A DNA stretch of 64,000 bases from Nitrospirota bacterium (GTDB taxonomy: Bacteria; Nitrospirota; UBA9217): NCBI GenBank assembly GCA_963751455.1, contig CAVVUN010000003.1, positions 1 through 64,000 of the forward strand. Direction: 5' to 3'. Each line of letters starts with the position of its first letter. Within the stretch, counting starts at the first letter, position 1. The notes under the pieces are model-generated. The model was not told the origin of the DNA. It did no database searches and saw nothing but the letters and a program-made list of their open reading frames with translations. Both the position numbers and the translations under genes were made by a program. This document shows, piece by piece, positions 13,201-36,944 of this stretch.

Positions 13201-13299
13201 GCCGCTGTCCGCAAGATCAAGGGCCGCTTGCATGCCGCCGATGCCGCCGCCGACGATCAGGACCGAACCCCGTTTTTTCGAAGACTTTTGTGCGCTCAT
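10243..13299 (-). CDS. hdrA: Large heterodisulfide reductase subunit A (two FAD-binding modules, ferredoxin domains), 1018 aa
   Basis: GGGIGG and GGGVAG motifs, DKTFPTGDCAMC, QCVGSR twice, CSSVCC/CSRVCC, IGVFVCHCG, CTPRTHE, C-terminal 2x CxxCxxCxxxCP. Confidence 0.95.
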   Translation of the reverse strand: MSAQKSSKKRGSVLIVGGGIGGMQAALDLADSGFKVHMVQKDMSVGGTMVMLDKTFPTGDCAMCMISPKMVEVGRHLNIKIHTLSEVTSVSGESGDFTVKVRRAPRYVDPAKCTGCGDCEAKCPKKVLSEFDQQLGQRKAIFSLFPQAVPNTRAIDSSNCLFLTDPQKKRCKLCEKTCKAGAINYEDKGEEIELHVGSIILGPGLSRYDAKVRPELGLGRWPNVVSSVQFERILSASGPFKGVVQRPSDQKHPVKVAWIQCVGSRDNHNANPWCSSVCCMYATKQSIIAKEHDKHIEPTVFYMEMRAFGKDFDKYVERAKNEYGVKYKRAMVSAVREEPGTGNLVLRYSDEAGKLLNETFDMVVLSVGFEPHKDAAAFAKTFGIETNQYLFAKTSHFTPVKTSRDGIFVTGIYQGPKDIPETVMQGSGVAGSAMALLAEARGTETVKKELPPEKDVKGEDARIGVFVCHCGTNISSTVEVNQVVEAVKKEKNVVYATNTIYACAQDNQDVIKQTIKDQNLNRVVIASCTPRTHEKLFQETIREAGLNKYLFDLADIREQCSWCHKGQNEVATKKAIKIVKMSVAKSRLQEPLKSESVDVTPACLVIGGGVAGMTAALAIADQGFPTHIVEKEQTLGGLARNVYRVLDGSDVQKFLAAKVAEVKAHPKITVHTGAEVKKTDGFVGNFKTTLTTGAEMSHGAIVLATGGVEYQPTEYLAGKSPNVITQRDLEKKLFAEDLSPRAGERYVMIQCVGSREENAQYCSRVCCQDAIKNAIAIKERNAAAEVVVLYRDIRTYGLREDYYKKARDLGVFFVRYDVDRKPVVEQAGSRVQVKAWDYMLDRELQFDADWLVLSAGLRPHPTTDAVGAMYKVTRNPDGYYLEAHVKLRPVDFPSEGLFVAGLGHAPKNFDETIAQALAAAGRAGVILSHEKLAVSGIIAKHKRELCMSCLSCFRVCPFGSPYIAEDGKVSHNEIKCMGCGICAGICPAKAFQVNNFRDDQILAMIDAAVDSEAGVVGS

Positions 13300-14171
13300 A
13301 TCAGGTTCAACTCCTTTAACAGTCCCATGGCATCCACGAAGTGACGGTCAACCTGCATGGAAACAGGATCGATCCCCATGGAAACTCCGATGAGCTCAGT
13401 GATAAAGTAGACCGGCAGCCGCTTCTCAATCCCGTACTTCGCGCCTACCTGGTCCTGGCACGCGTCCACGTTCATCTGGCAGAGCGGGCAGGTGGTAACG
13501 ATGCAGTTCGCGCCCCGGGCGGTTACATCCTTGAAAATCCGGGACATGAGCAGCTGCGATTGGTCGGCGTCATTGTAAGCCGCGGAAGCGCCGCAGCAGT
13601 CTGTTTTGTAGCTCCAGTCGATAGGCTTGGCGCCGATCGCTTTGCAGACTAGTTCCATTCCCTGGGGGTTCTCGACGTCATCCGGCACATCTATGTCGAC
13701 CGGGAAACGGGTAAGCAGGCACCCGTAGTAACAGGCAGGTTTGAGGCCTTCCAGCTTTTTAACGGCTTTCCCGGCAATCTCACCCGAGGTCACCTTCGGC
13801 TTCAGCACCTCGAGAATACTGGACACCTTGATTTTGCCTTCGACCTTGAAACCCAGCTCCGCGTTTATGGATTCTTTCAGCGCGGGGTCGGCAGCAAGCT
13901 TTTTTTGCGATACGAGGGTCCTGCTGTAGCAGGACGAGCACGGAATGACGATTTCGGAAAGACCCGTGGCGTCGGCGATGCCGAGATTGCGTGCCGGCAG
14001 CGCAGTGGATAGAAATTCGTTTGTTTTGCTCGCGGCAGTTGCGCCGCAGCAGTTCCAGTCGTCGATCTCTTTGAGCTCGAGACCCAGTTTGCTGAATACA
14101 AGTTTACACTGGATGTCATAAAGCTCGGATGATGCATGCAGCGAACAACCGGGATAGTAGGCTATTTCCAT
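13296..14171 (-). CDS. hdrB: Heterodisulfide reductase subunit B (two CCG domains)
   Basis: YYPGCS..WNCCG..PCSSC; YYGCLL..DCCG..TCPLCQ. Confidence 0.95.
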   Translation of the reverse strand: MEIAYYPGCSLHASSELYDIQCKLVFSKLGLELKEIDDWNCCGATAASKTNEFLSTALPARNLGIADATGLSEIVIPCSSCYSRTLVSQKKLAADPALKESINAELGFKVEGKIKVSSILEVLKPKVTSGEIAGKAVKKLEGLKPACYYGCLLTRFPVDIDVPDDVENPQGMELVCKAIGAKPIDWSYKTDCCGASAAYNDADQSQLLMSRIFKDVTARGANCIVTTCPLCQMNVDACQDQVGAKYGIEKRLPVYFITELIGVSMGIDPVSMQVDRHFVDAMGLLKELNLI

Positions 14172-14199
14172 AGTACGGTACTCATCCTCCGTCAGGACT

Positions 14200-14802
14200 T
14201 CAGCGGCCCTTGGACTTTTTATAGAGAGCTTTCACTTCCGAGAGGTTCTTGACCTTGTCCACGCCGAAGTGCATCCGTTTCTTTTTCGTCATCGCTGCGC
14301 CGAGTTTACCCTGGCTCACGATTTCATCTATTACGGCTTTCACCTTGCCCTTCGCCAGCTCCTTAAACAGCGTCTTGGTTTCATAAATGGCCATGCTCTC
14401 GATCTCGTTGAACCGGCCAAGGTGCCGCGTTGTAGTCATGAAGGCATTGTGGAAATCCGCAATGCGGGGGGTCAACGGCTTCAGGTGCGCTTCCTTGGAC
14501 ATCTGCTTAAGCGTCTCGGTGATCCTGGCTGTCTGGATGTTGTTCGGGCAGCGCGTGCCGCAGGTATAGCAGGCAACACACTTCCAGACCAGGAGATTAT
14601 TGAGCGCCGCGTCCCTGTCTCCCACGAGAATCAATCTGATCAGACGGTCCGGCGTGATTCCTGTCTCCTCACCGACCGGACACCCGGCAGCACACCGGCG
14701 GCACTGATAGCACGCCTGCAGGTTCTGGCCGGAGCGCCGCGTGACCTCTTCGAGCAGCGGCTTTGTGATCGAAGCATCATATTTCAGTACTGAAGATGGC
14801 AT
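14200..14802 (-). CDS. hdrC: Heterodisulfide reductase subunit C
   Basis: CYQCRRCAAGCP and WKCVACYTCGTRCP. Confidence 0.93.
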   Translation of the reverse strand: MPSSVLKYDASITKPLLEEVTRRSGQNLQACYQCRRCAAGCPVGEETGITPDRLIRLILVGDRDAALNNLLVWKCVACYTCGTRCPNNIQTARITETLKQMSKEAHLKPLTPRIADFHNAFMTTTRHLGRFNEIESMAIYETKTLFKELAKGKVKAVIDEIVSQGKLGAAMTKKKRMHFGVDKVKNLSEVKALYKKSKGR

Positions 14803-17180: not shown

Positions 17181-18032
17181 TTAATCGAGGGCGCCGATAA
17201 GACCGACATCCTGGCGCAGTTGCTCGTAATCCTTGTCCGTAACGGGAACAAAGCCTGTAAGGTCCGCAGAAGAGAGAATTTTTGCAGACAAAGGGTCACT
17301 CACTCTGAGCTTGAGCAATGCTTTCTTTATCTTGATCATGACGTCTTTACCGAGTGAGGGCGCTGAGAATACCGGCCAGTTCGGATAGTAATCGGTATAA
17401 GCCACGATTTTCAGTTTCGAAAGGTCTACCTTGTCCTTCATTTTTTCCAGGTCATCTTCGCGGATCCCGCCGGCATCCGCTGCCCCGTTAAACACAGCCA
17501 TCGTTACATTGTCATGTTTTCTGGCGAACGGCAGCGTGGTGAAATCTTTGGAAACATCCATCCCGGATTTACTCAGGAGAAGCATTTGAAAGACATAGCC
17601 GGCTCCCGAGTCTCTGTCAACAAACGAAAGGTTTTTGCCTTTCAGGTCCCGGATTGTTTCTATTCCGCTGTCTCTTCTTACAATGATGATGCCCCGGAAT
17701 TTGCTTCCTGCTTTGGGCTCTGATGAAAGGGCCAGCGGTTCGATATTGACATCCTTTTTAAGCTGAACATAGATCAGTGAATTTGCGAAGCCAAGATCCA
17801 GATGCCCCGACGTGACTTCGGCTTTAAACGATAAGAAATCCTTGGGAATAACAATGGTAACTTTCTCTCCCGCCTCTTTCGTCAGGTATTCCGCGAGAGG
17901 ACTAAACATGGTATAGAGCTCAACCGCGCCAAGGCGGGGAAGTATTCCAAGTTTGATCTCGGTACGGGCTGCCCCCGGCTGTGCAGCTGTAATAACCGAA
18001 ACTATCGCCAAAAACCAAACCCATCTCGTCAT
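17181..18032 (-). CDS. PhnD/phosphonate-binding-family periplasmic substrate-binding protein with no adjacent ABC transporter
   Basis: Signal-peptide-like N-terminus (start taken at MTRWVW); FRGIIIVRRDSGI..DLKGK..FVDRDSGAGY, HDNV..V..GAADAG; paralog of 23539-24405. Confidence 0.8.
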   Translation of the reverse strand: MTRWVWFLAIVSVITAAQPGAARTEIKLGILPRLGAVELYTMFSPLAEYLTKEAGEKVTIVIPKDFLSFKAEVTSGHLDLGFANSLIYVQLKKDVNIEPLALSSEPKAGSKFRGIIIVRRDSGIETIRDLKGKNLSFVDRDSGAGYVFQMLLLSKSGMDVSKDFTTLPFARKHDNVTMAVFNGAADAGGIREDDLEKMKDKVDLSKLKIVAYTDYYPNWPVFSAPSLGKDVMIKIKKALLKLRVSDPLSAKILSSADLTGFVPVTDKDYEQLRQDVGLIGALD

Positions 18033-18137
18033 TAACCGGGCTCCCCGAGCAGCGCTTCCTTCTGGAATTTTCCGCTTGTTCCGGCTCATCTGAGTTCCGT
18101 TTGCATTCATAAATGCAATAGTTTCGATATGCGTTAA

Positions 18138-18506
18138 TTACAGGGAAAGTTTCTCGATCATTGCGTGGAGATCGCTTGGCTGAAACGGTTTTTTTACATA
18201 GCCTTTGGCTCCGAGTGCCAGCCCCCTCATGGTATCTTCTTCTTTGCCTTCAGTACTCACCATAATGATCGGAATGTGGTTAAATTTCTCGAGCTCTTTA
18301 ACTTTTTTAATGAACTCGATTCCGTTCATGACCGGCATATTAATATCGAGAAGAATCAGACTGACATCAGGGTGTTTCTGAAGCTTATCCAGCCCGTCTT
18401 GGCCGTTCAGCGAATCCAGAATTTCGCACTTGTAGCGCATGAGCACCATTTTATACATTTGATGAATCAGCGCGGAATCGTCTATGACCAGGACTTTCTT
18501 AAGCAT
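18138..18506 (-). CDS. CheY-like single-domain response regulator
   Basis: VIDDS, LLDINMPVMNG, MVST, KKPF. Confidence 0.9.
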   Translation of the reverse strand: MLKKVLVIDDSALIHQMYKMVLMRYKCEILDSLNGQDGLDKLQKHPDVSLILLDINMPVMNGIEFIKKVKELEKFNHIPIIMVSTEGKEEDTMRGLALGAKGYVKKPFQPSDLHAMIEKLSL

Positions 18507-18562: not shown

Positions 18563-18958
18563 TTATCCGTTGACCGGCACCCCGAGGCTGCGCACTCGTT
18601 CTGCAAGTTCACGAATATCAACAGGCTTATCGTAGTAATATCGAGCACCGCGGCCATAGGCGTCCTGCTTTACTTCTTCGGATCCATGCGCGGTCATAAC
18701 AATGACTTCCGTTTTCGGCCAGTATCGCTTTATGTAACTTAAAAGCTCAAGGCCTTCGACCCCCAGGATACCGGACATTCTTATGTCCACGATCACTACA
18801 TCAAATGTATACCGGGAAAGCGCTTCCTCGGCCGTGTCCAGCCTGCTTGCGGTAATCACCTCGACATGCCGGGACCCTAGCGCGTAGGACAGCGTGAGCA
18901 ATATCGTGGGTTCGTCATCAACTATGAGAATCCTCTTTGCTTCGTGGTTAACCAACAT
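18563..18958 (-). CDS. Single-domain response regulator receiver
   Basis: IVDDEP, IVDIRM, VMTAHG, YDKP. Confidence 0.88.
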   Translation of the reverse strand: MLVNHEAKRILIVDDEPTILLTLSYALGSRHVEVITASRLDTAEEALSRYTFDVVIVDIRMSGILGVEGLELLSYIKRYWPKTEVIVMTAHGSEEVKQDAYGRGARYYYDKPVDIRELAERVRSLGVPVNG

Positions 18959-19265: not shown

Positions 19266-20882
<1,617 letters not shown>

Positions 20883-20886
<4 letters not shown>

Positions 20887-21809
20887 GTCACTTTCCTGTA
20901 TATCGTGGAGGCTAAGCGGACCAGGGGCAGGTCGAATCCGTGCACCGTCTCGGAATGTCCCAGAAAGAGATATCCGCCCGAATTCAGACAGCGGCATAAC
21001 CGGCGCAACAGCTTCTGCTGCGTCGAGCGCTCGAAATATATGATCACATTCCGGCAGAATATAGCATCCATTTTTTCGGGCACCATCAACTGTTCATCCA
21101 TCAAATTAAGCCGTTGAAAAGAAATACGGTCTCTCAATTCGGGCACAACGCGGACGGTCTTTTTTTCCTTGTCCTTGTTTCGAAGAAAATATTTTTGCAT
21201 GAGAGAAAGCGGAATGCCGGCGACCAGGTGCCGCTCATAAATACCCATGCGTGCCTTTTCGAGAACTTTGGTCGATATATCGGTTGCCAGGATCGCGTAC
21301 TGGAAATCCGGATCCAGTAGCGCAAATCCATTCAGTACGATTGCCAGTGTGTAAGGTTCCTCGCCCGAGGAGCAGCCGGCGCTCCAGATACAGAATCTTT
21401 TTTTGTTTCCGGGATGCACATCGGCCATGAACTCGGGCAGCACGGTTTCCGCAAGAAATTGAAAATGAACCGGCTCGCGGAAAAAATCCGTCTTGTTTGT
21501 TGTTACTGCATCGATCATATGTACCAGTTCGGCGGCGCCTTCCTGCGATCCGAACAGAAATTCGCAATACTCGGCAAACGAGGCCATGCCCAGGCTCCTG
21601 AGCCGTTTCTGCAGACGCGACTCCAGCATAATCTTCTTTGCCTGCGGCATCTTGATCCCGCAGTGATCGATGATAAATTGGCTTAAATCGTCGAACTGCT
21701 TCTGGGACATTGATTTTACAGTGTCGTTGTAAATACTCTGGACCTCTTTCTTTGCGGAATGCGGATCATCTGAAGCATATATCGTCTTGCGGAATGATTC
21801 AAGATGCAT
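20883..21809 (-). CDS. cheR: Chemotaxis methyltransferase CheR
   Basis: TTNKTDFFRE, WSAGCSSGEEPYT, ATDIS, IFCRNVIIYF, GHSE. Confidence 0.97.
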
Positions 21810-21906: not shown

Positions 21907-23493
21907 TCAGCTTCTCGTTAATACAGGATTAACTGCCTCCTCGAAATGAGGAACCGTGATTTTATGTTTCGCTCCCCGTTTCGTGGGTTCTCCGGTCCCT
22001 CGCGCAACCACGTCGTGCCCAATCACCTTAAAAAACGATATGGTCCCTTGAAGCTGCTCGGCCTGCGAAGAGAGTTCTTCGGCGGTCGAGGACATCTCTT
22101 CCGCCGCGCCGGCGTTCTGCTGGATAACGCGATTCAGCTGCTGGATCGCCGAATTAATCTGATCTGCGCCGGATGTCTGCTCCTTACTGGCGGCACTGAT
22201 CTCCTGCACCAGCTCAGCGGTTTTCTGTATGTCAGGTACCAGCCGGGCAAGCATCTGGCCGGCCCTCTCCGCGACCTCGACACTGGATACCGACAGATGA
22301 CTTATTTCCGCGGCAGCCGCCTGACTGCGTTCCGCAAGTTTGCGCACCTCGGAAGCCACGACCGCAAAGCCCTTGCCATGCTCTCCTGCCCGTGCAGCTT
22401 CAATGGCGGCATTCAGGGCGAGAAGATTCGTCTGGCGGGCAATTTCTTCGATGATCGATATCCTGGCCGCAATCTCCTTCATGGCTCCGACCGTCTCCAT
22501 GACTGCTTTTCCGCTATCACGGGCGTCTGCGGCCGACTTTAGCGCAATTTTTTCTGTCTGCTGGGCATTGTCTGAATTTTGCCGGATGGTTCCGCTCATC
22601 TGCTCGATGGACGATGACGCCTCCTCTGCAGAGGTCGCCTGTTCCGTGGTTCCCTGCGACATCTGCTCGGCCCCGCCCGACAGCTGCCGGCTGCCGGAAG
22701 CGACGCCGTCGGACGCAGACTTCACGTCAGCTACGACCCCTTTCAGGTTTTCAACCATGTTTTTCGTTGCCCGGAGCAGCTCCCCGGTTTCATCCGTGTT
22801 CTCGTTTTCCTTGATATCCACGGTCAGATCTCCCGTCGCAACGTTTCGCAGCGTGCTCAATGCCTTCTGTATTGGGTTTGTGATGCTTCTGACAAAGACG
22901 ATGCCGCCGAAAACACCGAAAAGGATAATTAGGGACGTAAGCGCGATGGAAATATATTTTGCCCTGGTCTGGACCTTTATCAGGATCTTATGCGTAAGCT
23001 CTTCGTCTTTTTTGAGAATGTCCTTCATGGACAACAGATACCCGTTCACGGTGTTTACCGCAGGAACGGTCTCGTTTGTGAAAATGGTATGGGCATCATC
23101 GATCCTGCCTTCCGCGTAGGCGGCGATTATTTTTTCGGCAGTCCGGTGCTGCGTTCGATGCGGCTCAACAAGTGCTTTGAACGGTACCGCGAGTTCCTCC
23201 GAATAGGGCTTATAGGTTGCGAGCCATTTTCCCAGGCTGCATTCATCGGGATCGATCTTCCCTTCGAACTCTCTCCCCTGGATAAACAGCTGGGACGAAA
23301 GACCGTCCATCCATCTGAAGTGATCGACGATCAACTGCGAGAGAAAACCGTTCACCCTTCTCATTTCCTGGTTTTTTTCCATGGCATTCTGCACCTGGAG
23401 CGATGCGGAAAAAATGATGAGGCCCATGACAAGAACCAGAAAAAGCAGAATGCCCAGCCCGGCTCCCAGTTTTCTTCCGATGGTCATGTTCAT
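21907..23493 (-). CDS. Methyl-accepting chemotaxis protein: TM-CZB-like-TM-HAMP-MA
   Basis: DHFRW..ECSLGKW..PHRTQH between two hydrophobic helices; [27 protein letters not shown] tip. Confidence 0.93.
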
Positions 23494-23538
23494 TATAGTT
23501 CCCCTTGAAAGGGCCCCTTTCGTGGCCGCACCCTGCTG

Positions 23539-24405
23539 TTAAAATGAACCCGCTGCCTTTGCCGCATGACGGAGGGTGTCATACTCGTTGTCGGAAACCG
23601 ATGCAAAACCGGTCAAATTCGGGGCAACCAGAATGCGCGCCATCTCCGGATCATCCGTCTTGAGCTTCAGCAGGGCCGCTTTAATTTTTGCCGCAACCGC
23701 CTTATCGGTCTTGAGTGCTACGAAGATCGGCCAGTTCGGAATGTACTCGGTGTAGGCGACAGTTTTCAACTGCGTTATATCGATTTTGTTTTTCATTTTC
23801 TCCAGGTCCTCTTCCCGAAGGCACCCGGCATCCGCCTCTTTATTGAACACGGCAGCTACGACTTTGTCCCCTTTTCCTGCAAAGGGAAGCAGGGTAATGT
23901 CCTTTTTAAAGTCGACTCCCGAATTCGAAATGAGAACTCTCTGGAACATATACGCAGCCGGGGAATCTTCGTTCATTGCGACCAGCTTTTTCCCTTTGAG
24001 ATCTTGAATTTTTTGAATTCCGCTATCGTTCCTGGCGAATATTATTCCCCTGAACTTTCTTCCCGCCTTCGGTTCAACCTGGAGCACAAGAGGAGTGATG
24101 TTTACTTCCTTCTTCAGCTGAATATAAATAAGCGGATTTGCAAAGGCCATGTCGAATTGTCCCTTCTTAACGCCTTCCTTGAAGGCGTCGAAGTCCTTCG
24201 GGATCATGATGCTCACTTTCTCGCCCGTCTCTTTGGAAAGATACTCGGCAAGCGGCTTGAACATGCCGTACAGCACTTCGGAGCTTAATCGCGGCAGGAT
24301 TCCAAACTTGATCTCAGCATAAGCGACATCCGGCCGGCAGACGGCAACTGCAACAACGGAGAGCACTACAAATAGAATTAAATTCAATGTACGTTTGTGC
24401 ATCAC
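23539..24405 (-). CDS. PhnD-family periplasmic substrate-binding protein between two MCP genes
   Basis: Signal peptide ending ..VAYA; FRGIIFARNDSGI..DLKGKK, SPAAY, V..KEADAG. Confidence 0.82.
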   Translation of the reverse strand: MMHKRTLNLILFVVLSVVAVAVCRPDVAYAEIKFGILPRLSSEVLYGMFKPLAEYLSKETGEKVSIMIPKDFDAFKEGVKKGQFDMAFANPLIYIQLKKEVNITPLVLQVEPKAGRKFRGIIFARNDSGIQKIQDLKGKKLVAMNEDSPAAYMFQRVLISNSGVDFKKDITLLPFAGKGDKVVAAVFNKEADAGCLREEDLEKMKNKIDITQLKTVAYTEYIPNWPIFVALKTDKAVAAKIKAALLKLKTDDPEMARILVAPNLTGFASVSDNEYDTLRHAAKAAGSF

Positions 24406-24532
24406 GATCCTCCCTTGGCAGCAAAAATGCTTTTTGATCCGTCATTTCATTCAGACCGTATTGTGCTGAAATGCCGAGGCGAGATTCGCCATAGTTCGCT
24501 TCGCTACCTTTAATCCTTCATCCTCCGGCTTT

Positions 24533-26326
24533 TCAGAATTTTTCAAACTCCGCGTCCTGTCCATTTCCCTTTACTTTAAAAGCGTGCTCCATGTTCAGAA
24601 CGACCCCTGCCCGCTTGAAACCGCTCGCTGCCGCTGCAACCGGTTCTTTAGTCTCTTTGCCCCTTCTGTGTTGCAGAACCACAGGTCGCAGCGTTTTGAC
24701 CGGATTTATTGCTGCCTCACGCTGCGGTTCAATGCCTTCAATCTTGAAGTACGCAATGGCTCCCGACAGCTGTTCCGCCTGTGAGGAGAGTTCCTCCGCG
24801 GTCGAGGCCATTTCCTCGGCTGCTCCGGCGTTCTGCTGGATCACCTGGTTCAGCTCCTGGATGGCTGCATTGATCTGGTCGGCGCCCGAATTCTGCTCTT
24901 TGCTTGCCGCAGATATTTCCTGCACGAGTTCGGACGTTTTCTGAATGTCGGGAACGAGCTTGGTCAGCATTGCCCCGGCCTTCTCAGCGATATCCACGCT
25001 CGATATTGACAACTGGCTGATCTCGCCTGCAGCTGACTGGCTCCGCTCCGCAAGCTTCCTGACCTCAGAGGCAACGACCGCGAAACCCTTGCCGTGCTCT
25101 CCGGCCCGTGCGGCCTCGATGGCTGCATTGAGCGCGAGCAAATTGGTCTGGCGCGCGATCTCCTCAATGATCGAAATTTTTCCGGCTATCTCTTTCATTG
25201 CTCCAACAGCCTTAAATACTGCATCCCCGCTCTCTTCAGCGTCTGCTGCGGATTTGAGGGCCAGTTTTTCCGTTTGCTGCGCGTTGTCCGCATTCTGACG
25301 TATTGTTGCGCTCATCTCCTCTACTGAGGAGGATGCCTCTTCCGCCGATGCAGCCTGCTCCGTTGTTCCCTGCGAAAGCTGCTCGGAACCGGAGGAAAGC
25401 TGCGCACTGCCCGAGGCGACGTTATCCGCTGCGCCCCTCACCTCGGTAACGATTTCGCCCAGCTTATTGATCATGCTTTGGAGAGAGTTGCCGAGGACAT
25501 CCTTTTCTGAAAGAATTTTTACCTTGCACGTTAAATCGCCGCGCGCGATCATATCAGCGGTATGTGCGAGCCCGGCGAGGCCTTCTTCCATCTTTTTCAT
25601 CGCGGACAACAGCTCTGCAATTTCATCGTCGGTCGTCACCTCCCCGATGTGCGCGGTCAAGTCCCCGTCGGCGATGCTTTTAACGACGCCCAGGGCGCGG
25701 CGCACCGGGTTCGTGATGCTCTTGACAAAGAAAATTCCGCTGATCACGCCGAACATAATAAGCGAGATAGTAAGAGCAACGGTAATTAATTTCGCCCTTG
25801 CCTGCACTGCGTTGAGTTCTTTGTGCGCCGCTTCTTCGTCCCGTTTCAGAGTTTCTTTCAGCTTTGCCAGGTGCTCCTGCACGGAGCTGACCGCGGGGGT
25901 CGTTTCCTGGATAAATATCCTGTGTGCCTCTTGCGTGTTCTTCTGTTTGTAAGCTGACAGTATTCTTTCCGCCGAATCGTGCAGTTTTTTATGCGGTTCG
26001 ATCATGGCATGAAACGGCGCTGCTATATCATCGGAGTACGGTTTAAAAGTACCAATCCATTTGCCGAGATTACATTCTTCCGGATTAAGTTTGCCGGTAA
26101 ACTCCTTTCCCTGGATAAACAGTCCGGATGAAAGCCCGTCCATCCATTTAAAATGGTCCACTATGCGCGCAGTCATCAGCCCGCTTATCTCCCGTATCTG
26201 CTGATTTTTTTCTACTGCCTTCTGGACTTTGCCGGCAGCCTGGAAAAAGAGCGCCCCCATAATGAGTACCATGAGGAGCATAACACTTAAACCAAGCGCC
26301 ATTTTCCTTCCTATCGTCAGCTTCAT
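24533..26326 (-). CDS. Methyl-accepting chemotaxis protein: TM-CZB-like-TM-2xHAMP-MA with C-terminal EFEKF
   Basis: DHFKW..ECNLGKW..PHKKLH; MA signature; ends DAEFEKF. Confidence 0.93.
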
Positions 26327-26379: not shown

Positions 26380-26892
26380 CTACGCGTCAGAGCGGGCATC
26401 TCCCGTCTCGGTCTGCTGTTCCTGGACAAGGGCGAGTTCATCCGTGGAGAACACCTTGTCGATGTCCAGGATGATGATAAACCTGCTGTCCCGCTTTCCC
26501 ATGCCCTTGATGAAATCTGTATTCAACCGGGTCCCGATTTTCGGCGCGGACTCGATATGGCCCGGCTCCAGGTCCAGCACTTCCTGCACCGAATCCGCCA
26601 GAGCGCCGAGGATCGTCGTCTCATTGTCTACCGTAACTTCCGCGATGATGATACAGGTATTTACCGTCTTTTCGGTCCTGCTGAGGCCGAACTTGAGCCT
26701 CAGATCGACAACCGGGACCACGCTGCCCCGCAGATTTATCACGCCCCGCATGAACTCCGGGGTTTTAGGCACCTTGGTGATCGCGGTGAAGTCGAGCACT
26801 TCGCGCACCTTCGAGATATCGAGCGCGAAGACCTCGTCATCGAGCTTAAACGTGAGATATTGAGTCGTTTCAATAATGCCTGCAGTAGTCAT
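26380..26892 (-). CDS. cheW: Chemotaxis adaptor CheW
   Basis: YLTFKL, GVINLRGSVVPVVDL. Confidence 0.97.
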   Translation of the reverse strand: MTTAGIIETTQYLTFKLDDEVFALDISKVREVLDFTAITKVPKTPEFMRGVINLRGSVVPVVDLRLKFGLSRTEKTVNTCIIIAEVTVDNETTILGALADSVQEVLDLEPGHIESAPKIGTRLNTDFIKGMGKRDSRFIIILDIDKVFSTDELALVQEQQTETGDARSDA

Positions 26893-27003: not shown

Positions 27004-28707
27004 TCAAAATTTTTCGAACTCACTGTCCCGGTGGTCGCCGTTTCCTTTTCCGTCGTGTCCCATTTTCAGGGCGACCCCGCTGGCAACCTGGGACGCTGCA
27101 TGAACAGCCTTGGCCTTGGGTCCGAAATGCGCGATGTTGAGCTTATGGGTTGCGCCGGAATGATTCATAGGCATTGACTGCCATATGCGGCCTTCGCGTT
27201 CCTCGACCTTGAAGAACGCCACTGTTCCCTGGAGCTGCTGCGCCTGGGAAGAAAGCTCTTCTGCTGTCGACGCCATCTCTTCCGCGGCGCCCGCATTCTG
27301 CTGGATCACCTGGTTCAGTTCCTGGATCGCGGCGTTGATCTGGTCGGCTCCGGACGTCTGTTCCTTGCTTGCCGCGCTGATCTCCTGCACAAGCTCGGCC
27401 GTCTTCTGGATATCCGGAACGAGCTTGGCCAGCATTTGGCCGGCCTTCTCAGCCACTTCAACACTCGACGAAGACAACTCGCTGATCTCGCCCGCCGCTG
27501 TCTGGCTCCTCTCTGCAAGCTTTCTGACCTCCGCGGCCACGACCGCGAAGCCCTTCCCGTGCTCGCCGGCCCGGGCCGCTTCGATGGCGGCATTGAGCGC
27601 AAGCAGATTCGTCTGACGGGCAATCTCTTCGATAATCGAGATTTTGCCGGCAATCTCCTTCATCGCCCCCACGGTTTCGGTCACCGCCTTGCCGCTTTCA
27701 GTCGCGTCCGTGGCGGATTTAAGCGCTATCTTTTCGGTCTGAAGGGCATTGTCCGCGTTCTGCCTGATCGTTGCGTTCATCTCCTCCACGGATGACGAAG
27801 CTTCCTCTGCCGAAGCCGCCTGTTCTGTTGTTCCCTGGGACATTTGCTCGGAACCTGACGACAGCTGCTGACTGCCCGATGCCACGTTGTCCGCCGCGGA
27901 TTTGACGTCGGCCACTACCAGCTTGAGCCGCTCCACCATGTTCTTCATCGCGGACAGCAGCTGCCCGGTCTCGTCTTTCCGATCAACTATCATATCAATA
28001 GTCAGATCGCCTTTTGAAAGTTTCTCCGATACACCCATCGCCTCGCGGAGCGGGGCGACAATGCTGCGGGTAATGATGATCCCGATCACGAGGCTCAATG
28101 CCAGGGCAACAAGCATGATCGTGATTACAATCGCTATGCTGCTCGAAGCATACTTGACGACATTCTCCTCCTCCTTATGCATTTCGTCGTAACCCTTGGT
28201 GGCGCCATCCTTGGCCGCCTGCTCCATTTTATGGGCCTCGTCCTTGACCTCTCCTACCATCGCGTTTGCCTGCTGCGTTGTTGTGATCTCGCCGCTCCTG
28301 ATCTTTTCATGGACACTGTGCACACCGGCAACGTACGGGTCCAAACTGGCCCTCAGGACACTCGCTGTTTCCTGCGCATAGTCAAGCGCTTTGACCTTCG
28401 CGATATCATCAATCCGCTTTTTTACGCTTTCTACCTCTTCCTTCCATTCTGCATAATATTTTTCCACCTTGTCCGCTGAATCGATATTAATAAACATGTC
28501 TTTTTCAAACCGCCGGAGTCCGAGCACGTTTGCCCTCGCCCTTCCCGCATGCTCGGCAAAAACTCCTTCCTCCTCGAGCATGTGAAGCGCAGTTTTCTGA
28601 AGCGATGTTACGCCCCAGTACCCGGCAATGCCGACAATCAGCAACAGAACCAGAATACTCCCAAATCCAAGCCCCAGCCGTAATCCAATCCTCATATCTT
28701 TAAACAT
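27004..28707 (-). CDS. Methyl-accepting chemotaxis protein with a four-helix-bundle sensor and C-terminal EFEKF
   Basis: RRFEKDMF sensor motif, HAMP DETGQL, MA signature, ends DSEFEKF. Confidence 0.94.
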
Positions 28708-28785: not shown

Positions 28786-30909
28786 TCAAGAAGCAACCGT
28801 CTCTTCCTTCTCTGCCTGGGAGATCAGGTTCGGGAGGTCGAGGATCAGGGCAACGGTGCCGTCGCCCAGGATCGTGGCCCCGGATATCCCTTCCACGTCC
28901 TTATAAAATTTTCCAAGCGATTTAAGCACGGTCTGATGCTGGCCGATCACGGTATCCACGGCGAACCCGACGCGTCGGCCTTCTTCTCTAACGATCACGA
29001 TCTGTTCGATTGCCGGGGTATTCCCTGCCATGACGAACTGTTCCCGAAGCCGGATAAACGGAACGATATGACCTCGTACGTTGACGAGGCGCCTCCCGTT
29101 CGCTTTAGCCGCTTGTTCACGGGTCAATTCGATGCATTCCTCAACCGAAGAGAGCGGGAAGATGAAATGCTCCTCTCCTGTTTTCGTAAGAAAGCCGTCA
29201 ATAATCGCAAGGGTAAGCGGAAGTTTGAGCGTAATCGTCGTCCCGGTGCCGCGAATGCTGGCGATCTCGATTGTCCCGCGAAGAGCATCGATTGCCTTTT
29301 TGACCACATCAAGACCCACGCCGCGTCCGGACATGCTCGTTACCTTCCGGGCAGTTGAAAAATCGGGCATGAGGACAAGCGAAAAAAGCTCTTTCTCTGA
29401 GAGTTCTGCATTAGGTTCGATCAGTCCTTTTTCAAGGGCCCTGGCCCGGATGGCCTCCGCATCCATTCCTGCCCCGTCGTCCGTTATTTCAATCAGCACA
29501 TGCGCACCCGAATGGGCCGCTGAAAGATGAATAATACCTTGCCGCGGTTTCCCCGCTGCTTCGCGTACAGCCGGCAGTTCAATCCCGTGGTCCATGCTGT
29601 TGCGGATGAGATGAACGAGCGGATCGTTCAGACGTTCAATGACTGTTTTGTCCAGTTCGGTGTCGGCGCCCTCCGTCCTCAACTCGATCTCTTTCCCGAG
29701 TTCTGCGGAAAGATCCCGGACCACACGTTTGAACTTGCTGAAGGTAGTGCCGATCGGCAGCATCCGGATGCTCATGGTGTTGTCGCGCAGTTCGGCGATC
29801 AGCCTCTCCACTTCTTCGGCTATGGACATGAACTGCGGAACCCCGTGGAGAAGCGCTGTCTGGCTAAGCCGGGCCTGCACGGTCACCAGTTCACCGACCA
29901 GGTTCACGAGCTTGTCCAGCCGGTCCGTCCCGACACGAATACTTGAGACCGTTTCCGGTCCCTTCCGGAGCTCATGAAGCTCCCGGATATGCTGCTGCTC
30001 AACCAGTGCCGAGGCTATTTTGTGTCCGCTCACGATGCCGCTCTCGACAAGCATCTCTCCCATCAGTTTTTTTGATTTCAGCGCCTTTTGGAGTTCCTCA
30101 GCCGTGACATCCCCGCGCTCCAGCAATATCTCGCCGAGCTTCTTATAGGTGGTTTCATCATCGATAGAGCATTCTTCGGCTATCACGTTTATGCTGACCT
30201 CACTGCTGTCCTTGATGAAAATGAAGATGTCCCGGATGGCATCCATGCCGAGCTTTGTGGTAAGAATCATGTCCCAGAAGGTATAGCATTCATCGACAGC
30301 GTAATCCTCTAAATACGGGATTGCCTCAGTCTGTGCCACGACGTGGCAATGGCCGAGTTTGCGAAGCTGATTGATCAGCGGCAGGGGGTCGGTGCCTGCC
30401 ATAAAAACGTTCTTCGCCGGGCGGAACCTGATCCGGTACGTCATGAATTTTCCCGGTGCTTCTTTTTTCAGTGCTGACGGGGCCTGCGGAAAAGACGGAT
30501 TGCTTGTCTTTTTTTGCGGGCGCTCGGGCAGCAGTTTTTTCAGTGCGGCTGTTATTTCCTCTCCATTCGATTCATTCGGGATTTCACCTTTATAATATGA
30601 ATCGAACATGTTTTTGATATGATCACGCGCCCGGAGCGCAAGGTCTATGATTTCCCTGGTTGCCGCTATTTTACCCTTTCGCACCATATCGAAAGCAGTT
30701 TCCAGTTCATGGGTAAAAGCAGCTACCGCAAGAAAATCACAGGTTGCGCCGGACCCCTTGATCGTGTGCATGCTTCGGAACACCCTGCTGATCTGCTCCA
30801 TGTCTCCGGGGTTGTGCTCGAGCTCGAGCAGTCCTGCCTCCATCTCAGCAAGCAGTTCGTACGCCTCTTCCCTGAAGGTCTCTCTCAGTTTGGCTATGAT
30901 CTCTTCCAT
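28786..30909 (-). CDS. cheA: Chemotaxis histidine kinase CheA
   Basis: HPt HTIKG, DPLVHLIRNSMDHG, SGRGVGLDVV, CheW-like C-terminus. Confidence 0.97.
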   Translation of the reverse strand: MEEIIAKLRETFREEAYELLAEMEAGLLELEHNPGDMEQISRVFRSMHTIKGSGATCDFLAVAAFTHELETAFDMVRKGKIAATREIIDLALRARDHIKNMFDSYYKGEIPNESNGEEITAALKKLLPERPQKKTSNPSFPQAPSALKKEAPGKFMTYRIRFRPAKNVFMAGTDPLPLINQLRKLGHCHVVAQTEAIPYLEDYAVDECYTFWDMILTTKLGMDAIRDIFIFIKDSSEVSINVIAEECSIDDETTYKKLGEILLERGDVTAEELQKALKSKKLMGEMLVESGIVSGHKIASALVEQQHIRELHELRKGPETVSSIRVGTDRLDKLVNLVGELVTVQARLSQTALLHGVPQFMSIAEEVERLIAELRDNTMSIRMLPIGTTFSKFKRVVRDLSAELGKEIELRTEGADTELDKTVIERLNDPLVHLIRNSMDHGIELPAVREAAGKPRQGIIHLSAAHSGAHVLIEITDDGAGMDAEAIRARALEKGLIEPNAELSEKELFSLVLMPDFSTARKVTSMSGRGVGLDVVKKAIDALRGTIEIASIRGTGTTITLKLPLTLAIIDGFLTKTGEEHFIFPLSSVEECIELTREQAAKANGRRLVNVRGHIVPFIRLREQFVMAGNTPAIEQIVIVREEGRRVGFAVDTVIGQHQTVLKSLGKFYKDVEGISGATILGDGTVALILDLPNLISQAEKEETVAS

Positions 30910-30916
30910 GGTTTTA

Positions 30917-31291
30917 TTACCTCTCGCTTCCAGTGTTCATAATGGAGCAGCCGGACCTGGCATTCCAAAGACAGCTATGATCCATATCGCGATGGCATCC
31001 GCTATAGCGGGCATAGCCCGCATCTTCGACGCATTGCTTGAATAGTTCAGGCCAAGTACCTGAAAAAGCAAGACGTTTGTTCATGCGGGCAGCGGAGCGA
31101 TGGGCGGAGCAAAGCAATTGAAGACACGAAAGATCAACACGTGTTAAAGAGTCGAATGCCAAACTCACACTGCCGTTATCGATAAGTGCTTTTATCAATG
31201 CCGACCGCATTTCATCTGCATTTTCGAGAGTAACATCCCCGGAAAGCGTTAATATCGCTTCTTCACCTGATCGTTTTAATGTGATTGCCAT
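30917..31291 (-). CDS. STAS-domain protein of the chemotaxis operon
   Basis: LSGDVT..VDLSCLQLLCSAHR; directly upstream of cheA. Confidence 0.85.
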   Translation of the reverse strand: MAITLKRSGEEAILTLSGDVTLENADEMRSALIKALIDNGSVSLAFDSLTRVDLSCLQLLCSAHRSAARMNKRLAFSGTWPELFKQCVEDAGYARYSGCHRDMDHSCLWNARSGCSIMNTGSER

Positions 31292-31510: not shown

Positions 31511-31879
31511 CTATATTCTCAGGAATTTTTTAACAACAGCCAGGAGCTGCTCCGAAGTGAAAGGCTTGACTATCCAGCCGCTGGCGCCGGCCTTCTTACC
31601 TTCCTGTTTTTTATCTTCCTGGGACTCTGTAGTCAGCATTATGATCGGAATGTATTTTGATTCAGGCATCGTGCGGATCTTTTTAATCAGCTCAAGGCCA
31701 TCCATTCCTGGCATGTTCAAGTCGGTAATAACCATATCTACCCTTTTGTGAGCCAGTTCAGCCATTGCTTCCATCCCGTCTTTCGCTTCAAAAACGTTAC
31801 AATCTGCGCTTTTTAGTGCAAATGAAACAAGTTGCCGTATGGAGGCAGAATCATCTATGACAAGAAGTGAAATCGGCAT
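31511..31879 (-). CDS. cheY: Chemotaxis response regulator CheY
   Basis: IDDS, ITDLNMPGMDG, MLTTES, GWIVKPF. Confidence 0.92.
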   Translation of the reverse strand: MPISLLVIDDSASIRQLVSFALKSADCNVFEAKDGMEAMAELAHKRVDMVITDLNMPGMDGLELIKKIRTMPESKYIPIIMLTTESQEDKKQEGKKAGASGWIVKPFTSEQLLAVVKKFLRI

Positions 31880-33385: not shown

Positions 33386-34072
33386 TTATTGTCCCGCGGG
33401 CTTCCGGGAATTGGCTTCGCATGCCATATGGCGGATTACTTTCCCTTTTACCATGTACACAACCATTTCAGCTATATTCGTTGCATGGTCAGCAACGCGC
33501 TCTAAATACTTTGTAATATAGGTGAGCCGAACAGCCCGGGAGATATTTTTTGGGTCCTTCAGCATATACAAAAGCAGCTCGTTGAAGATCTGCTGGTTAA
33601 GATTATCGACAAAATCGTCCGCAGCGCAGACCTGAATCGCAAGGTCCGCGTCCTTCGCAACGAACGCATCAAGGCTGTTTTTCAGCATTTTTTGCGCAGC
33701 CTCGGCCATCCTCGGGATATCGATATACGGCTTAAGAGGCGGCTCCTCATTCAACTCGATTGCGCGTTCGCAGATATCCACTGCAAGGTCTCCCATGCGT
33801 TCAAGGTCCGTGATGATTTTGATTGCCGTGGTAACGAACCGCAGGTTGCTGCCCGTAGGCTGCCAGATGGCCAGAAAGCGGATTGTCTCCTCTTCGATCT
33901 CTACATCGAAGTTATTGACAATGGTATCGCCATTGATCACCTGCAGGGCAAGTTCCCGGTCCCGCTCGACGAGTGCCTTGATCGATTTCCTTATCGCGTC
34001 CTCGACAGCCCCACCCATTTTCAGGATCTGCTCTTTGAGCTTATCGAGTTCCTGTTCTTTTTGTCTGGCCAT
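33386..34072 (-). CDS. phoU: Phosphate signalling protein PhoU
   Basis: TDLERMGD and KYLERVADHATNIAE. Confidence 0.97.
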   Translation of the reverse strand: MARQKEQELDKLKEQILKMGGAVEDAIRKSIKALVERDRELALQVINGDTIVNNFDVEIEEETIRFLAIWQPTGSNLRFVTTAIKIITDLERMGDLAVDICERAIELNEEPPLKPYIDIPRMAEAAQKMLKNSLDAFVAKDADLAIQVCAADDFVDNLNQQIFNELLLYMLKDPKNISRAVRLTYITKYLERVADHATNIAEMVVYMVKGKVIRHMACEANSRKPAGQ

Positions 34073-34156
34073 GGTAACTCCTTGTCAATTGCAAATTTCG
34101 GATTGCGAATTGCGGATTGAAAGGCAAAGGTTTAAGAAGCTTTTATTTCGCATTCT

Positions 34157-34196
34157 GCTTGCGCCCAGCGATTACGAGTGCACGCGAGTGCAGGGT
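34157..34196 (+). repeat. Short copy of the GCTTGCGCCC...GTGCAGGGT element inside a 7-nt (ccgcatt-like) repeat tract
   Basis: gcttgcgcccagcgattacgagtgcacgcgagtgcagggt. Confidence 0.7.
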
Positions 34197-34219
34197 GAAA
34201 TCCGCATTCCGCAATCGGC

Positions 34220-34999
34220 TTACCCAAACCTTCCCGTTATATAATCGTCCGTCTGCTTTTTATCCGGGTTCGTGAATATTTTTTCCGTGGGTCCGAACTC
34301 GATCAGTTCGCCCATGTAGAGAAAGGCCGTCATGTCGGACACACGGGCCGCCTGCTGCATGTTGTGCGTCACAATGATGATCGTGACCCGCTTCTTGAGT
34401 TCGCCAACCAGTTCCTCTATGCGGGTTGTGGCAATGGGGTCCAGGGCCGAGGTGGGCTCATCGAAGAGGATGATCTCCGGGTCCGTGGCAAGGGCGCGGG
34501 CAATGCAGAGCCGTTGCTGCTGGCCTCCCGACAGGTTGAATGCGAGGCTGTGGAGCCGGTCATGCGTCTCCCGCCAGATCGCCGCGTCGCGCAGCGCCTG
34601 TTCCACTTTATCGTCAAGAATGCTTTTCTTGGTCACCCCGCGAACGCGGAGTCCGTAGGCCACGTTTTCATAGATGGATTTGGGGAAAGGATTCGGCTTC
34701 TGAAACACCATGCTGATGCGCATGCGGACCTCAATCGGGTCCACCGCGCGGCTGATGATGTTGACGTTGTCGGGATGAAGGATGATTTCGCCCTCGTAGC
34801 GGTTGCCGTGATACAGATCGTGCATGCGGTTGAAGCAGCGGAGATAGGTCGTTTTCCCGCAGCCCGACGGTCCGATAAACGCGGTCACCTGTTTCTCGGG
34901 GATGGCAAGACTGATGTCCCTGAGGGCATGGACCGTGTTGTAGTAGAAATTCAGGTTTTTTACTTCGGCCTTGATCGCTTTTCCTGCAGTAACAGTCAT
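34220..34999 (-). CDS. pstB: Phosphate ABC transporter ATPase
   Basis: [45 protein letters not shown]. Confidence 0.97.
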
Positions 35000-35015
35000 T
35001 AAAACAGTCCTCACC

Positions 35016-35945
35016 TTACCATTTGATGCGCTTGCGGATTCGGGAACGGAGGTATATGGCCAATGCGTTCATGGCGAGCGTCATCAGAAGCAGAACCACG
35101 CCGGCCGCGGCTGCATTGTGTTGGAACGCCTCCTCGGGACGCGACGTCCAGTTAAACATCTGAATGGGCATTACCGTGAAAGGATCCAGTATCCATTTAA
35201 ACGAAACAAAGGGAAACTCCGGTGTTACAGGCGAATGGGGAAGAAAGGCGATGAAGGTAAGCGCGCCAATGGTGATGATGGGCGCGGTTTCGCCGATGGC
35301 CCGCGACAGCCCGATAATAACGCCCGTCAGGATTCCGCCCGTTGAGTAGGGCAAAACATGGTTCCAGACCGTCTGCCATTTGGTCGCGCCGAGCGCGTAA
35401 GCCGCCTCTCGGATGCTCCCCGGCACCGCCCTGATGGCCTCCCGTGTGGCCACGATCACGACCGGAAGAATCAGCAGCGCCAGAGTCAGGCCGGCAGACA
35501 GGATGCTTTGTCCGAGCCCAAACGTATAAACGAAGAGCCCGAGGGCTAAGAGCCCGTACACAATGGACGGCACGCCGGCAAGGTTCGTGACGTTGATCTC
35601 GATGATCGCGGTGAGCCAATTCTTGCGCGCGTACTCCTCGAGGTAAATCGCCGACGCGATTCCCAGGGGTACCGCCGCAAAGGCCGTCACGAGCATCACG
35701 AGCACGGTCCCGACCCAGGCAGAAAGGATGCCGGCGCTCTCAGCCCTTCGGGACGGGAACGAGGTGAAGAAATCAGCGTTAAACCGCGGCATGCCGTTGA
35801 TGAAAAGCTGGATGAACAGCGCCAGCAGGGTGAGAACACCCAGGAGCATGCAGAGAAAACCGACGACCGCGAAGATATAATCCCATCGTTTGTGACGGGA
35901 AATGATGGCGCGGATCTCTTCCGCTTTTTGCACAATCATCCGCAT
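35016..35945 (-). CDS. pstA: Phosphate ABC transporter permease
   Basis: [33 protein letters not shown]. Confidence 0.96.
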
Positions 35946-35947
35946 CC

Positions 35948-36859
35948 TCAATATACCTCCCTGACACGCTTTTTCAGGATGTAACCGGCGATATTGAAGA
36001 CAAGCGTGATCAGCATCAGGGTAAGCCCGGCTGCAAAGATGGTCTGGTACCCGATGCTGCCGTGAGGCAAGTCGCCAAGGCTCACTTGAACGATGTAGGA
36101 AGTGATCGTGGCGGCCGGCTCCATCGGGTTCCACGTGAGATTCGGCTGCATGCCTGCCGCGATTGCCACGACCATGGTCTCACCCACAGCCCGTGAGATC
36201 CCGAGAATGTATGCAGCCGCAACGCCAGAGAACGCCGAGGGGAATACAACACGCACCGCGGTCTGGAACCGGGTGGCGCCCATGGCATAGGAACCCTCGC
36301 GGATAAACATAGGAACGGCGTGCATGGCGTCCTCACTTACGGAGCTCACGTAGGGCACGATCATGACGCCCATCACGATGCCGGCTGAGAGCATGTTGAA
36401 ACCCGGCAGGTCCGGCATGACCGTTTGTAAAAGCGGTGTGACGAAGACCAGGGCGAAGTAGCCGAAGACCACTGTAGGAACGGCCCCGAGCAGTTCCAGA
36501 AAGGGCTTCACAAGCTCCCGAAGCCTGTGCGGGGCGAATTCGCTCAAATAGATCGCGATGATCGTCCCGAGCGGAATCGCCACGGCAAGCGCCACGCCTG
36601 TCGTCACCAGGGTCCCGGCCACGAGCGGCATGATGCCGTAATGCGCGTTGTCGAAAAGCGGCGTCCACTGCGTGTCGGTCAGAAACTCTTTCAGGGAAAC
36701 TTGCTTGAAAAAGGGAATGGATTCATAAATGAGGATGGCGGCGATAGCGAACGTGGTGAACACCGAGGACAGCGCCGCCAGAAGCAGAATCGCTTCGATC
36801 ACGCGCTCGCGCACGCGCCGGGCGTGTTTCCTGGTGAGTGATTGTTGAGTGCCGTTCAT
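35948..36859 (-). CDS. pstC: Phosphate ABC transporter permease
   Basis: ELLGAVPTVVFG, REGSYAMGATR, SRAVGETM. Confidence 0.96.
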   Translation of the reverse strand: MNGTQQSLTRKHARRVRERVIEAILLLAALSSVFTTFAIAAILIYESIPFFKQVSLKEFLTDTQWTPLFDNAHYGIMPLVAGTLVTTGVALAVAIPLGTIIAIYLSEFAPHRLRELVKPFLELLGAVPTVVFGYFALVFVTPLLQTVMPDLPGFNMLSAGIVMGVMIVPYVSSVSEDAMHAVPMFIREGSYAMGATRFQTAVRVVFPSAFSGVAAAYILGISRAVGETMVVAIAAGMQPNLTWNPMEPAATITSYIVQVSLGDLPHGSIGYQTIFAAGLTLMLITLVFNIAGYILKKRVREVY

Positions 36860-36886
36860 ACTGGTGAAGCTCCGGTTTACAAAACG

Positions 36887-36920
36887 AAAAAGGGCGGGGC
36901 GTCCTTCCGGGCCCCCGCCC
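36887..36920 (-). terminator. GC-rich hairpin plus U-tract between pstS and pstC (partial terminator or mRNA stabiliser)
   Basis: Minus strand gggcgggggc..gccccgccc followed by ttttt. Confidence 0.6.
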
Positions 36921-36944
36921 GAATTACCCGCATGAGCGGGCAAA

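Follow-up and report, generated by a model that had tools for sequence, protein, structure and literature searches.

Does a PhnD-like solute-binding protein (SBP) that is encoded between two chemoreceptors, with no transporter beside it, act as a partner of those receptors? The question is raised by the chemotaxis (che) gene cluster in a 64,000-nucleotide stretch of a Nitrospirota genome (GCA_963751455.1). In this cluster the gene for the binding protein, SBP1, lies between genes for two methyl-accepting chemotaxis proteins (MCPs), MCP1 and MCP2, each of which has a CZB sensor domain facing the periplasm. The whole stretch, positions 1-64000 of contig 3, is referred to here as the window. It belongs to a 5.7-Mb genome in 15 contigs (completeness 100%, contamination 5.4%), which we call the own genome (G000). 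Extracted loci carry L-numbers, of which L015, L016, L017, L300 and L302-L304 come from the own genome.

Our tentative answer is that SBP1 is an optional, signalling-only oxyanion binder that would dock on the CZB bundle. The parts of such a system are known already, periplasmic CZB domains in silico and signalling PF12974 proteins by experiment. Their combination was not found in the literature searched, whose scope ended short of subscription papers and supplements (Data Set S1 of PMC8262984 may list such receptors).

MCP1 and MCP2 carry a CZB domain in the periplasm

MCP1 and MCP2 are 59% identical, and each has two hydrophobic segments, at residues ~10-30 and ~180-205 (transmembrane segments TM1 and TM2). 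Between these segments both receptors carry H58-x2-W61, C85-x-L-G-K-W90 and H112-x3-H116, the 3His/1Cys pattern, with the CxLGxW element in the versions CSLGKW / CNLGKW. Pfam CZB (PF13682) matched residues 58-123 with 31.4 and 31.2 bits (cut-off 29.4), and HAMP and MCPsignal follow. A CZB domain between TM1 and TM2 and then HAMP and MCPsignal is the layout of the periplasmic N-terminal CZB chemoreceptor group. With the topology read from hydropathy and from the order TM1, ligand-binding domain, TM2, HAMP, the preliminary description was right to place a 3His/1Cys motif, and a CZB domain, outside the cytoplasm in both receptors. A cytoplasmic location is ruled out by the transmembrane segments on both sides.

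The residues H58, W61, C85, G88, H112 and H116 are invariant in all 76 rows of an alignment of MCP1 with 75 close homologues, none of which was dropped; the motif is therefore not a chance occurrence. When a 56-row profile of the periplasmic domain (alignment A1) was compared with the PDB, DgcZ alone was returned at E <=0.001 (3t9o, E 8e-7), with all four zinc ligands matched. The CZB domain of DgcZ also ranked first in a Foldseek search with the model of the MCP1 domain (3t9o_B, TMt 0.75, root-mean-square deviation [rmsd] 2.8, E 4e-3). In VIA the best match was Vc1313, a four-helix chemoreceptor sensor domain (Z 14.8, rmsd 2.2, 147 of 150 residues aligned), and LytS of the XylFII complex (Z 12.9), DgcZ (Z 12.4, rmsd 2.4, 116 aligned) and Tar (Z 10.7) were matched as well; such Z values are only moderately informative for helical bundles, and other four-helix-bundle domains score as high as DgcZ or higher. 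On the model, the sensor domain of MCP1 and MCP2 is a Tar-like bundle with a predicted CZB zinc site.

The periplasmic arrangement is already catalogued in silico. The available part of PMC8262984 counts 384 putative periplasmic CZBs (3.9%), N-terminal in membrane chemoreceptors and with a residue other than Arg at motif position 2, which is Ser/Asn in MCP1/MCP2. That group has the same layout as MCP1 and MCP2 and is described there, in the part available, by bioinformatics only, without ligand, partner or gene-neighbourhood analysis. On periplasmic CZB our literature search gave only this 2021 survey and its preprint, so that in the literature searched these receptors are counted with neither ligand nor partner assigned. 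The well-studied CZB proteins DgcZ (E. coli) and TlpD (H. pylori) share the 3His/1Cys pattern, CxLGxW and the four-helix fold; they are cytoplasmic, whereas the domain in MCP1 and MCP2 is periplasmic. HOCl was set aside as the less likely physiological signal: the same part of PMC8262984 regards zinc binding as the ancestral property and the sensing of HOCl as adaptive in host-associated bacteria.

SBP1 belongs to a PhnD-like family that lies beside signalling genes

SBP1 starts with a hydrophobic signal segment, matches PF12974 with 202 bits and TIGR01098 over its cut-off, and falls below the cut-off of the PhnD equivalog TIGR03431 (137.6 vs 261.1). It has the type II SBP fold, and its closest solved relatives are PtxB, PhnD and HtxB (5o2j, E 6e-24; TM-score 0.73-0.82). 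No permease or ATPase was found in the che cluster, in agreement with the preliminary description, and a search of the own genome, 100% complete, for a cognate ABC transporter elsewhere gave no match to PhnE or PhnC (TIGR01097, TIGR02315) over cut-off. The nearest ABC system identified, a complete pstSCAB-phoU operon upstream of the che cluster (window 33386-37961), was rejected as the transporter of SBP1: it has its own PstS. Likewise, no ABC permease was recognised directly beside 52 close SBP relatives, whose neighbours were mostly judged by BLAST to signalling references and in part Pfam-scanned.

In the own genome PF12974 has 14 matches, 11 of them strong, and the strong ones lie in 10 genes. 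Two of these genes are fused to a chemoreceptor or kinase, seven immediately precede a sensor with a HAMP domain (kinases, a GGDEF-EAL protein and chemoreceptors), and the tenth is SBP2, a second PF12974 gene in the same che cluster that the preliminary description overlooked. SBP2 is ~60% identical to SBP1, with its His motif intact. Judging from sequence and gene order, SBP1 is likely a signalling-associated protein with no transporter in its gene cluster, used for signalling only.

The alternative that SBP1 feeds a transporter encoded elsewhere, an ABC system or a secondary carrier, and has nothing to do with the receptors is very improbable. It could draw on the TIGR01098 match, on distant relatives (~41% identity) beside TctA, Na-sulfate symporter and TauE genes, on one close subclade near CHR transporters and on the frameshifts in the assembly. 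The missing PhnC/PhnE, the dedicated PstS of the Pst system and the lack of recognised ABC permeases beside the close relatives all speak against it.

PhnD-like SBPs encoded beside CZB receptors form one clade

SBP trees sort largely by gene context. Five PhnD-like SBPs were found directly upstream of a CZB receptor (the window, L055, L059, L202 and L255); they make up three clusters at 90% and come from three Nitrospirota families. These CZB-adjacent SBPs form one clade, with support of 99/92 in the tree with three such rows and 99/90 in the tree with all five, for which two outgroups and 11 distant rows were removed. In a FastTree tree of 176 rows the clade comprises 14 rows (support 0.81), and eight residues are near-exclusive to it. 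Four of the eight, E43, Y46, G47 and K50 of SBP1, lie on one face of helix 1, within the clade motif E-x-L-Y-G-M-F-K, which suggests a partner-facing specificity patch. None of the five mapped clade SBPs precedes an sCache receptor.

The remaining close receptors with an adjacent SBP share one 10-row clade of the receptor tree (89/84, not starred), in which seven of the 10 have an SBP upstream. MCP1 and MCP2 group apart (92/94), with receptors that lack SBPs, and both their signalling-domain type and their che-cluster type differ from those of L055 and L059. Since MCP1 and MCP2 belong to a different receptor subclade and SBP1 is nevertheless CZB-adjacent, SBP1 seems to have kept a CZB receptor as its neighbour while the surrounding cluster changed. 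The rows are kin and hence not independent; independent pairing events number about three or four.

The pairing is not obligate

Several observations weigh against a functional SBP-CZB pair. A 300-genome sample of the phylum gave 62 receptor matches outside the own genome, of which 60 were fetched (the two omitted were among the weakest). By a script rule the layout is periplasmic in 53 of the 60, and a recognised SBP lies directly upstream in five of those 53 (two PhnD-like, three PBP_like_2); since the Pfam scan covered part of the upstream genes, the figure is a minimum for other SBP families. With genome and metagenome contigs added, 62 of 101 loci were analysed (weak tail omitted, duplicates dropped), and the close receptor set came to 46 rows, or 42 clusters at 90% identity. 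Three clusters, MCP1 included, follow a PhnD-like SBP and three a Peripla_BP_6 SBP; the other 36 follow cheA, cheW or other genes (one contig edge and two unidentified), with no upstream SBP detected. Locus L057 is the same cluster as L059 minus the SBP.

The SBP side leads in the same direction. We examined 52 of the 53 close relatives (identity >=52%): 29 directly precede an sCache_3-like sensor and two a CZB receptor, one follows an sCache-like sensor, nine follow a response regulator and have no receptor downstream, like SBP2, four are at contig edges and seven have other neighbours. The sCache_3-like assignment reflects weak matches to sCache_3_2 in 13 of 16 aligned members. In the own genome an SBP gene stands directly upstream of two of three CZB receptor genes and five of the 16 other MCP genes (7/19 in total; Fisher p 0.52). 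Moreover, SBP1 and the SBP of L059 are on long branches (0.91 and 0.86), and a single cassette inherited by all members, instead of selection, could account for the clade; the shared clade residues argue against a long-branch artefact. Because 36 of 42 receptor clusters have no detected SBP and SBP-receptor pairs are common, the pairing is not obligate and adjacency alone is weak evidence. As to its conservation across genomes, the association proposed in the preliminary description is seen in one SBP clade (five loci), as a possible restricted pairing, and finds no support as a general rule.

These counts bear on an alternative that is possible, if doubtful: the CZB receptors would be stand-alone sensors of zinc or thiol-reactive species (sulfide, oxidants), and SBP1 would serve sCache-like receptors, such as that of L016, and have reached its present place through shuffling of che-cluster genes. 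Besides the many receptors with no SBP detected upstream and the absence of SBP enrichment at CZB receptors in the own genome, the invariant zinc ligands agree with this alternative. So do the main partner of the SBP family, which is sCache-like as for AioX-AioS (available part of PMC8050422), and the SBP2-type copies (9/52) that end che operons with no receptor downstream. It is harder to reconcile with a single clade of CZB-adjacent SBPs that has its own surface residues and no mapped member before an sCache receptor, and with the position of SBP1 itself, which is flanked by CZB receptors on both sides and followed by MCP1 after 45 bp.

Periplasmic-CZB receptors of ~720 aa (L079, L080, L081, L086 and L091) follow immediately after genes for an HdrA-like protein, the small and large subunits of a NiFe-hydrogenase and TusA, a context checked by Pfam for L079 and by matching gene sizes for the other four. 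Such neighbours would provide a redox or sulfur context for stand-alone CZB receptors.

CZB receptors are also found behind other SBP families. A Peripla_BP_6 SBP lies upstream of periplasmic CZB receptors in L258, L266 and L274, both SBP types occur in L055 and L202, and a PBP_like_2 SBP is upstream in L015 of the own genome and in L076, L078 and L082. Relatives of the PBP_like_2 proteins also precede sCache-like receptors; two SBP families thus each pair with both sensor types, CZB and sCache-like. In a wider reading, which we regard as unlikely, the periplasmic CZB domain would be a four-helix docking platform clamped by zinc. At least three unrelated SBP families (PhnD-like, Peripla_BP_6 and PBP_like_2) would have come to pair with it independently, it would be interchangeable with sCache-like domains, and it would form a two-input acceptor sensor in sulfur-respiring Nitrospirota. 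A sulfate or thiosulfate signal would then arrive via the transporter-free SBP, zinc, sulfide or redox status would be read at the Cys-Zn site, and chemotaxis towards the electron acceptor would result.

Among the PBP_like_2 loci, L015:4518-7711 (G000:C9) has in a row cheW, a Tat-signal C_GCAxxG_C_C-type redox protein, the SBP and a third periplasmic CZB receptor. The redox protein is an 86-aa piece in L015 and 269 aa long in L076. The C9 binding protein is PBP_like_2 by its full gene; a short N-terminal piece of it had no Pfam match. At L082:930-3485 the CZB receptor has lost the first of its Zn-ligand histidines, and a TAG stop interrupts the upstream SBP match; L082 has either a dispensable zinc site or a decaying cassette. 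The binding-protein genes directly upstream of 7 of the 19 chemoreceptor genes in the own genome belong to four families (PF12974, PBP_like_2, ABC_sub_bind and NMT1_2; L300 and L302-L304), in contrast to the linkage with transporters that PMC8050422 gives as usual for the SBPs of chemoreceptors.

The binding pocket points to an oxyanion, less clearly in SBP1

According to the available part of PMC5700983, PtxB holds phosphite via Y55, Y100, S130, T131, S132 and H160 under a D22/Y208 cap. The corresponding pocket of SBP1 is formed by R39, F72, F118, S148-P-A-A151, G179, R197 and W225. At the PtxB ligand positions the 176 family rows have F, F, S, A, A and H (H in 164/176), the Asp/Tyr cap is replaced by R39 (172/176) and W225 (174/176), and R197 is invariant. 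The STS-H ligand motif with a Tyr/Asp cap is accordingly absent from SBP1, which has S148-P-A, G179, F72, F118, R39 and W225. From general binding-protein chemistry, a pocket with two arginines and a reduced number of hydroxyls would suit a dianion in its fully ionised form.

Sulfate-related genes were found within ~5 kb in 18 of the 52 close SBP loci, 9 of 11 distant ones and 1 of 60 CZB-centred loci; the set (Sat/APS kinase, CHR transporter, sulfotransferase, CysQ, TauE and Na-sulfate symporter) was chosen after seeing these neighbours. Sbp and CysP gave no match in the own genome. Since sulfate genes are frequent neighbours of the family and its pocket is rich in Arg, an oxyanion is the likeliest ligand and sulfate the best guess, which we consider moderately probable at the level of the SBP family. 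For SBP1 two results count against extending this guess. Sixteen of the 18 sulfate-gene loci belong to one related subclade and none is CZB-adjacent, and SBP1 alone among the 176 rows has Gly at the ligand His (H179G). The case for sulfate is weaker for SBP1 because of this substitution and because SBP1 deviates in 7 of 89 conserved columns, where the median row deviates in 2. Of the signals that the preliminary description offered, an oxyanion therefore stands as the likeliest ligand class for the family, less firmly for SBP1 itself.

The H179G copy may have changed or weakened ligand affinity. The equivalent His contacts the ligand in PtxB (PMC5700983, available part), and the structure entry of E. 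coli PhnD H157A is titled open, unliganded. Thus, a further alternative is that the pairing is real in the clade and SBP1 has lost or changed its ligand binding, being a ligand-blind modulator or decaying together with a duplicated MCP1. This is improbable, even though A151 and other motif changes accompany H179G, the end branches are long (that of SBP1 as given above; 0.54 for the MCP1 domain vs 0.22 for MCP2) and MCP1 ties for the most conserved-column departures (5/43). The open reading frames of SBP1 and of the receptors are intact and have ribosome-binding sites; dN is ~0.3 and dS saturated relative to the relatives, which suggests overall constraint and says nothing specific to this lineage. 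SBP1 also retains R39, S148, R197 and W225, and HtxB provides a precedent in which loss of the ligand His can mean a new ligand, not none (PMC5700983, available part).

Independently of the CZB question, Nitrospirota have a family of transporter-free PhnD-like proteins that appears dedicated to chemoreceptors and has a sulfate-linked neighbourhood. Its conserved pair, present at 29 of the 52 loci, is represented in the own genome by L016:2725-5494 (G000:C6), where the gene of a PhnD-like SBP immediately precedes that of a chemoreceptor whose short sCache_3-like domain scores under Pfam cut-offs. One subclade of the sCache-paired SBPs has Sat-APS kinase, CHR transporter, sulfotransferase and CysQ genes around it. 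As a candidate sulfate chemosensor, the pair of the L016 type is stronger than the CZB pair, and the family is a candidate for sulfate sensing by sulfate-reducing bacteria. Its genes call for caution in that they are routinely mis-annotated as phosphonate transporters. Distant SBP relatives (40-44%) in L190-L196 occur with TauE-family genes and a molybdopterin oxidoreductase with its 4Fe-4S subunit, putatively a locus resembling that of a thiosulfate or polysulfide reductase.

A proposed mechanism and its relation to known systems

In the reading that we tentatively prefer, SBP1 would bind a sulfur oxyanion such as sulfate in the periplasm and dock on the outward CZB four-helix bundle of MCP1, MCP2 or both, as MBP does on Tar. 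Helix 4 would then move like the piston of Tar and pass the signal via TM2 and HAMP to CheA. The zinc site, presumably occupied, may be a structural clamp, a second direct input (zinc, sulfide or an oxidant on the Cys) or both. Such a role would account for the lack of an SBP neighbour at most of these receptors. The receptors would by default be Zn-site four-helix sensors, to which one lineage adds a dedicated oxyanion-binding protein. Should the pairing hold, the periplasmic CZB gains a partner, and a domain familiar as a Zn/HOCl sensor of the cytoplasm becomes a periplasmic sensor on which an SBP docks.

The nearest precedents differ from SBP1 and its receptors in several ways. AioX-AioS/ArrX (available part of PMC8050422) shares with SBP1 a transporter-less PF12974 protein beside signalling genes, an oxyanion ligand (predicted for SBP1) and the fold, and the likeness extends to the sCache-like majority partner of the SBP family. 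However, the output here is a chemoreceptor and CheA, the candidate partner is a four-helix bundle with a zinc site, and the Arg-rich pocket of SBP1 has a sulfur oxyanion, not arsenite, as its predicted ligand. In MBP-Tar and XylFII-LytS an SBP docks on a four-helix-bundle sensor domain (PMC8050422, available part), and the domain of MCP1 and MCP2 between TM1 and TM2 shares this architecture (Z 10.7-12.9). According to that source, most SBPs that stimulate chemoreceptors have their genes beside those of transporters, whereas SBP1 is encoded inside a che cluster with no transporter. The term CZB occurs 0 times in this review. In ThsS/TtrS (PMC5408782, available part) a PF12974 domain that senses thiosulfate/tetrathionate is fused to a kinase, whereas SBP1 is a free protein beside chemoreceptors. 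PtxB, PhnD and HtxB (PMC5700983, available part) have STS-H where the SBP family has S-A/P-A-G plus H and SBP1 has S-P-A-A plus G; relative to PtxB, the Tyr ligands are Phe and the Asp/Tyr cap is Arg/Trp, and PhnC/PhnE are absent.

The che cluster and further observations

The che cluster lies on the minus strand and runs in the order CheY-like regulator, STAS protein, cheA, MCP3, cheW, MCP2, SBP1, MCP1, cheR, cheD, cheB, two response regulators and SBP2 (Table 1). The HAMP region of MCP2 has one Pfam HAMP match and is ~39 aa longer than that of MCP1.

Table 1. Genes and domains of the che cluster, in window coordinates
Feature	Position	Strand	Remarks
Single-domain response regulator (CheY-like)	31511..31879	-	
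STAS-domain protein	30917..31291	-	
cheA	28786..30909	-	
MCP3	27004..28707	-	4HB_MCP_1 sensor domain, not CZB
cheW	26380..26892	-	
MCP2, 597 aa	24533..26326	-	TM1, periplasmic CZB four-helix bundle, TM2, HAMP region, MCP signalling domain, C-terminal EFEKF pentapeptide
MCP2 periplasmic domain, residues 30-180	25787..26239	-	Predicted Zn ligands H58, C85, H112, H116
SBP1	23539..24405	-	PF12974 type II binding protein with signal segment
MCP1, 528 aa	21907..23493	-	TM1, periplasmic CZB, TM2, HAMP, MCP signalling domain; C-terminal pentapeptide absent
MCP1 periplasmic domain, residues 30-180	22954..23406	-	AlphaFold2 model pLDDT 95, all-helical bundle
cheR	20883..21809	-	Under equivalog cut-off, E 1e-65
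cheD	20362..20997	-	
cheB	19266..20384	-	
Single-domain response regulator	18563..18958	-	
Single-domain response regulator	18138..18506	-	Directly before SBP2
SBP2	17181..18110	-	Second transporter-less PF12974 paralogue, last in che cluster

A promoter and terminator scan gave counts at shuffle level (13 vs 11.7; 20 vs 17.6), and the intergenic RNA folds no better than shuffles (z 0.67, -0.10). The cluster ends with a response regulator and SBP2 (window 17181-18506), with no receptor downstream. Among the nine relatives with a similar regulator-SBP order, six have a regulator 81-86% identical, and their SBPs group in the tree.

Downstream of the che cluster the window has HdrA/B/C-like genes (10243-14802). 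The own genome likely has dissimilatory sulfur metabolism, since it carries dsrA, which is split into two frames (G000:C2:327037-328180). Two chemoreceptor genes (L300:3070-7909) are likewise broken across frames, and together these splits suggest indel errors in the assembly.

Two further proteins place the domains discussed here in other settings. At L225:5911-6600, on an alphaproteobacterial contig, a 229-aa periplasmic-type CZB protein in which no signalling domain was detected lies among sugar-nucleotide genes. In the own genome, L017:2904-5804 (G000:C9) encodes a 966-aa chemoreceptor whose Phosphonate-bd domain is C-terminal, behind MCPsignal, and hence cytoplasmic. It adjoins a DsrC/TusE-like gene, named by sequence inspection, and PF12974-bearing frames of 940-980 aa were present in four of the five relatives checked.

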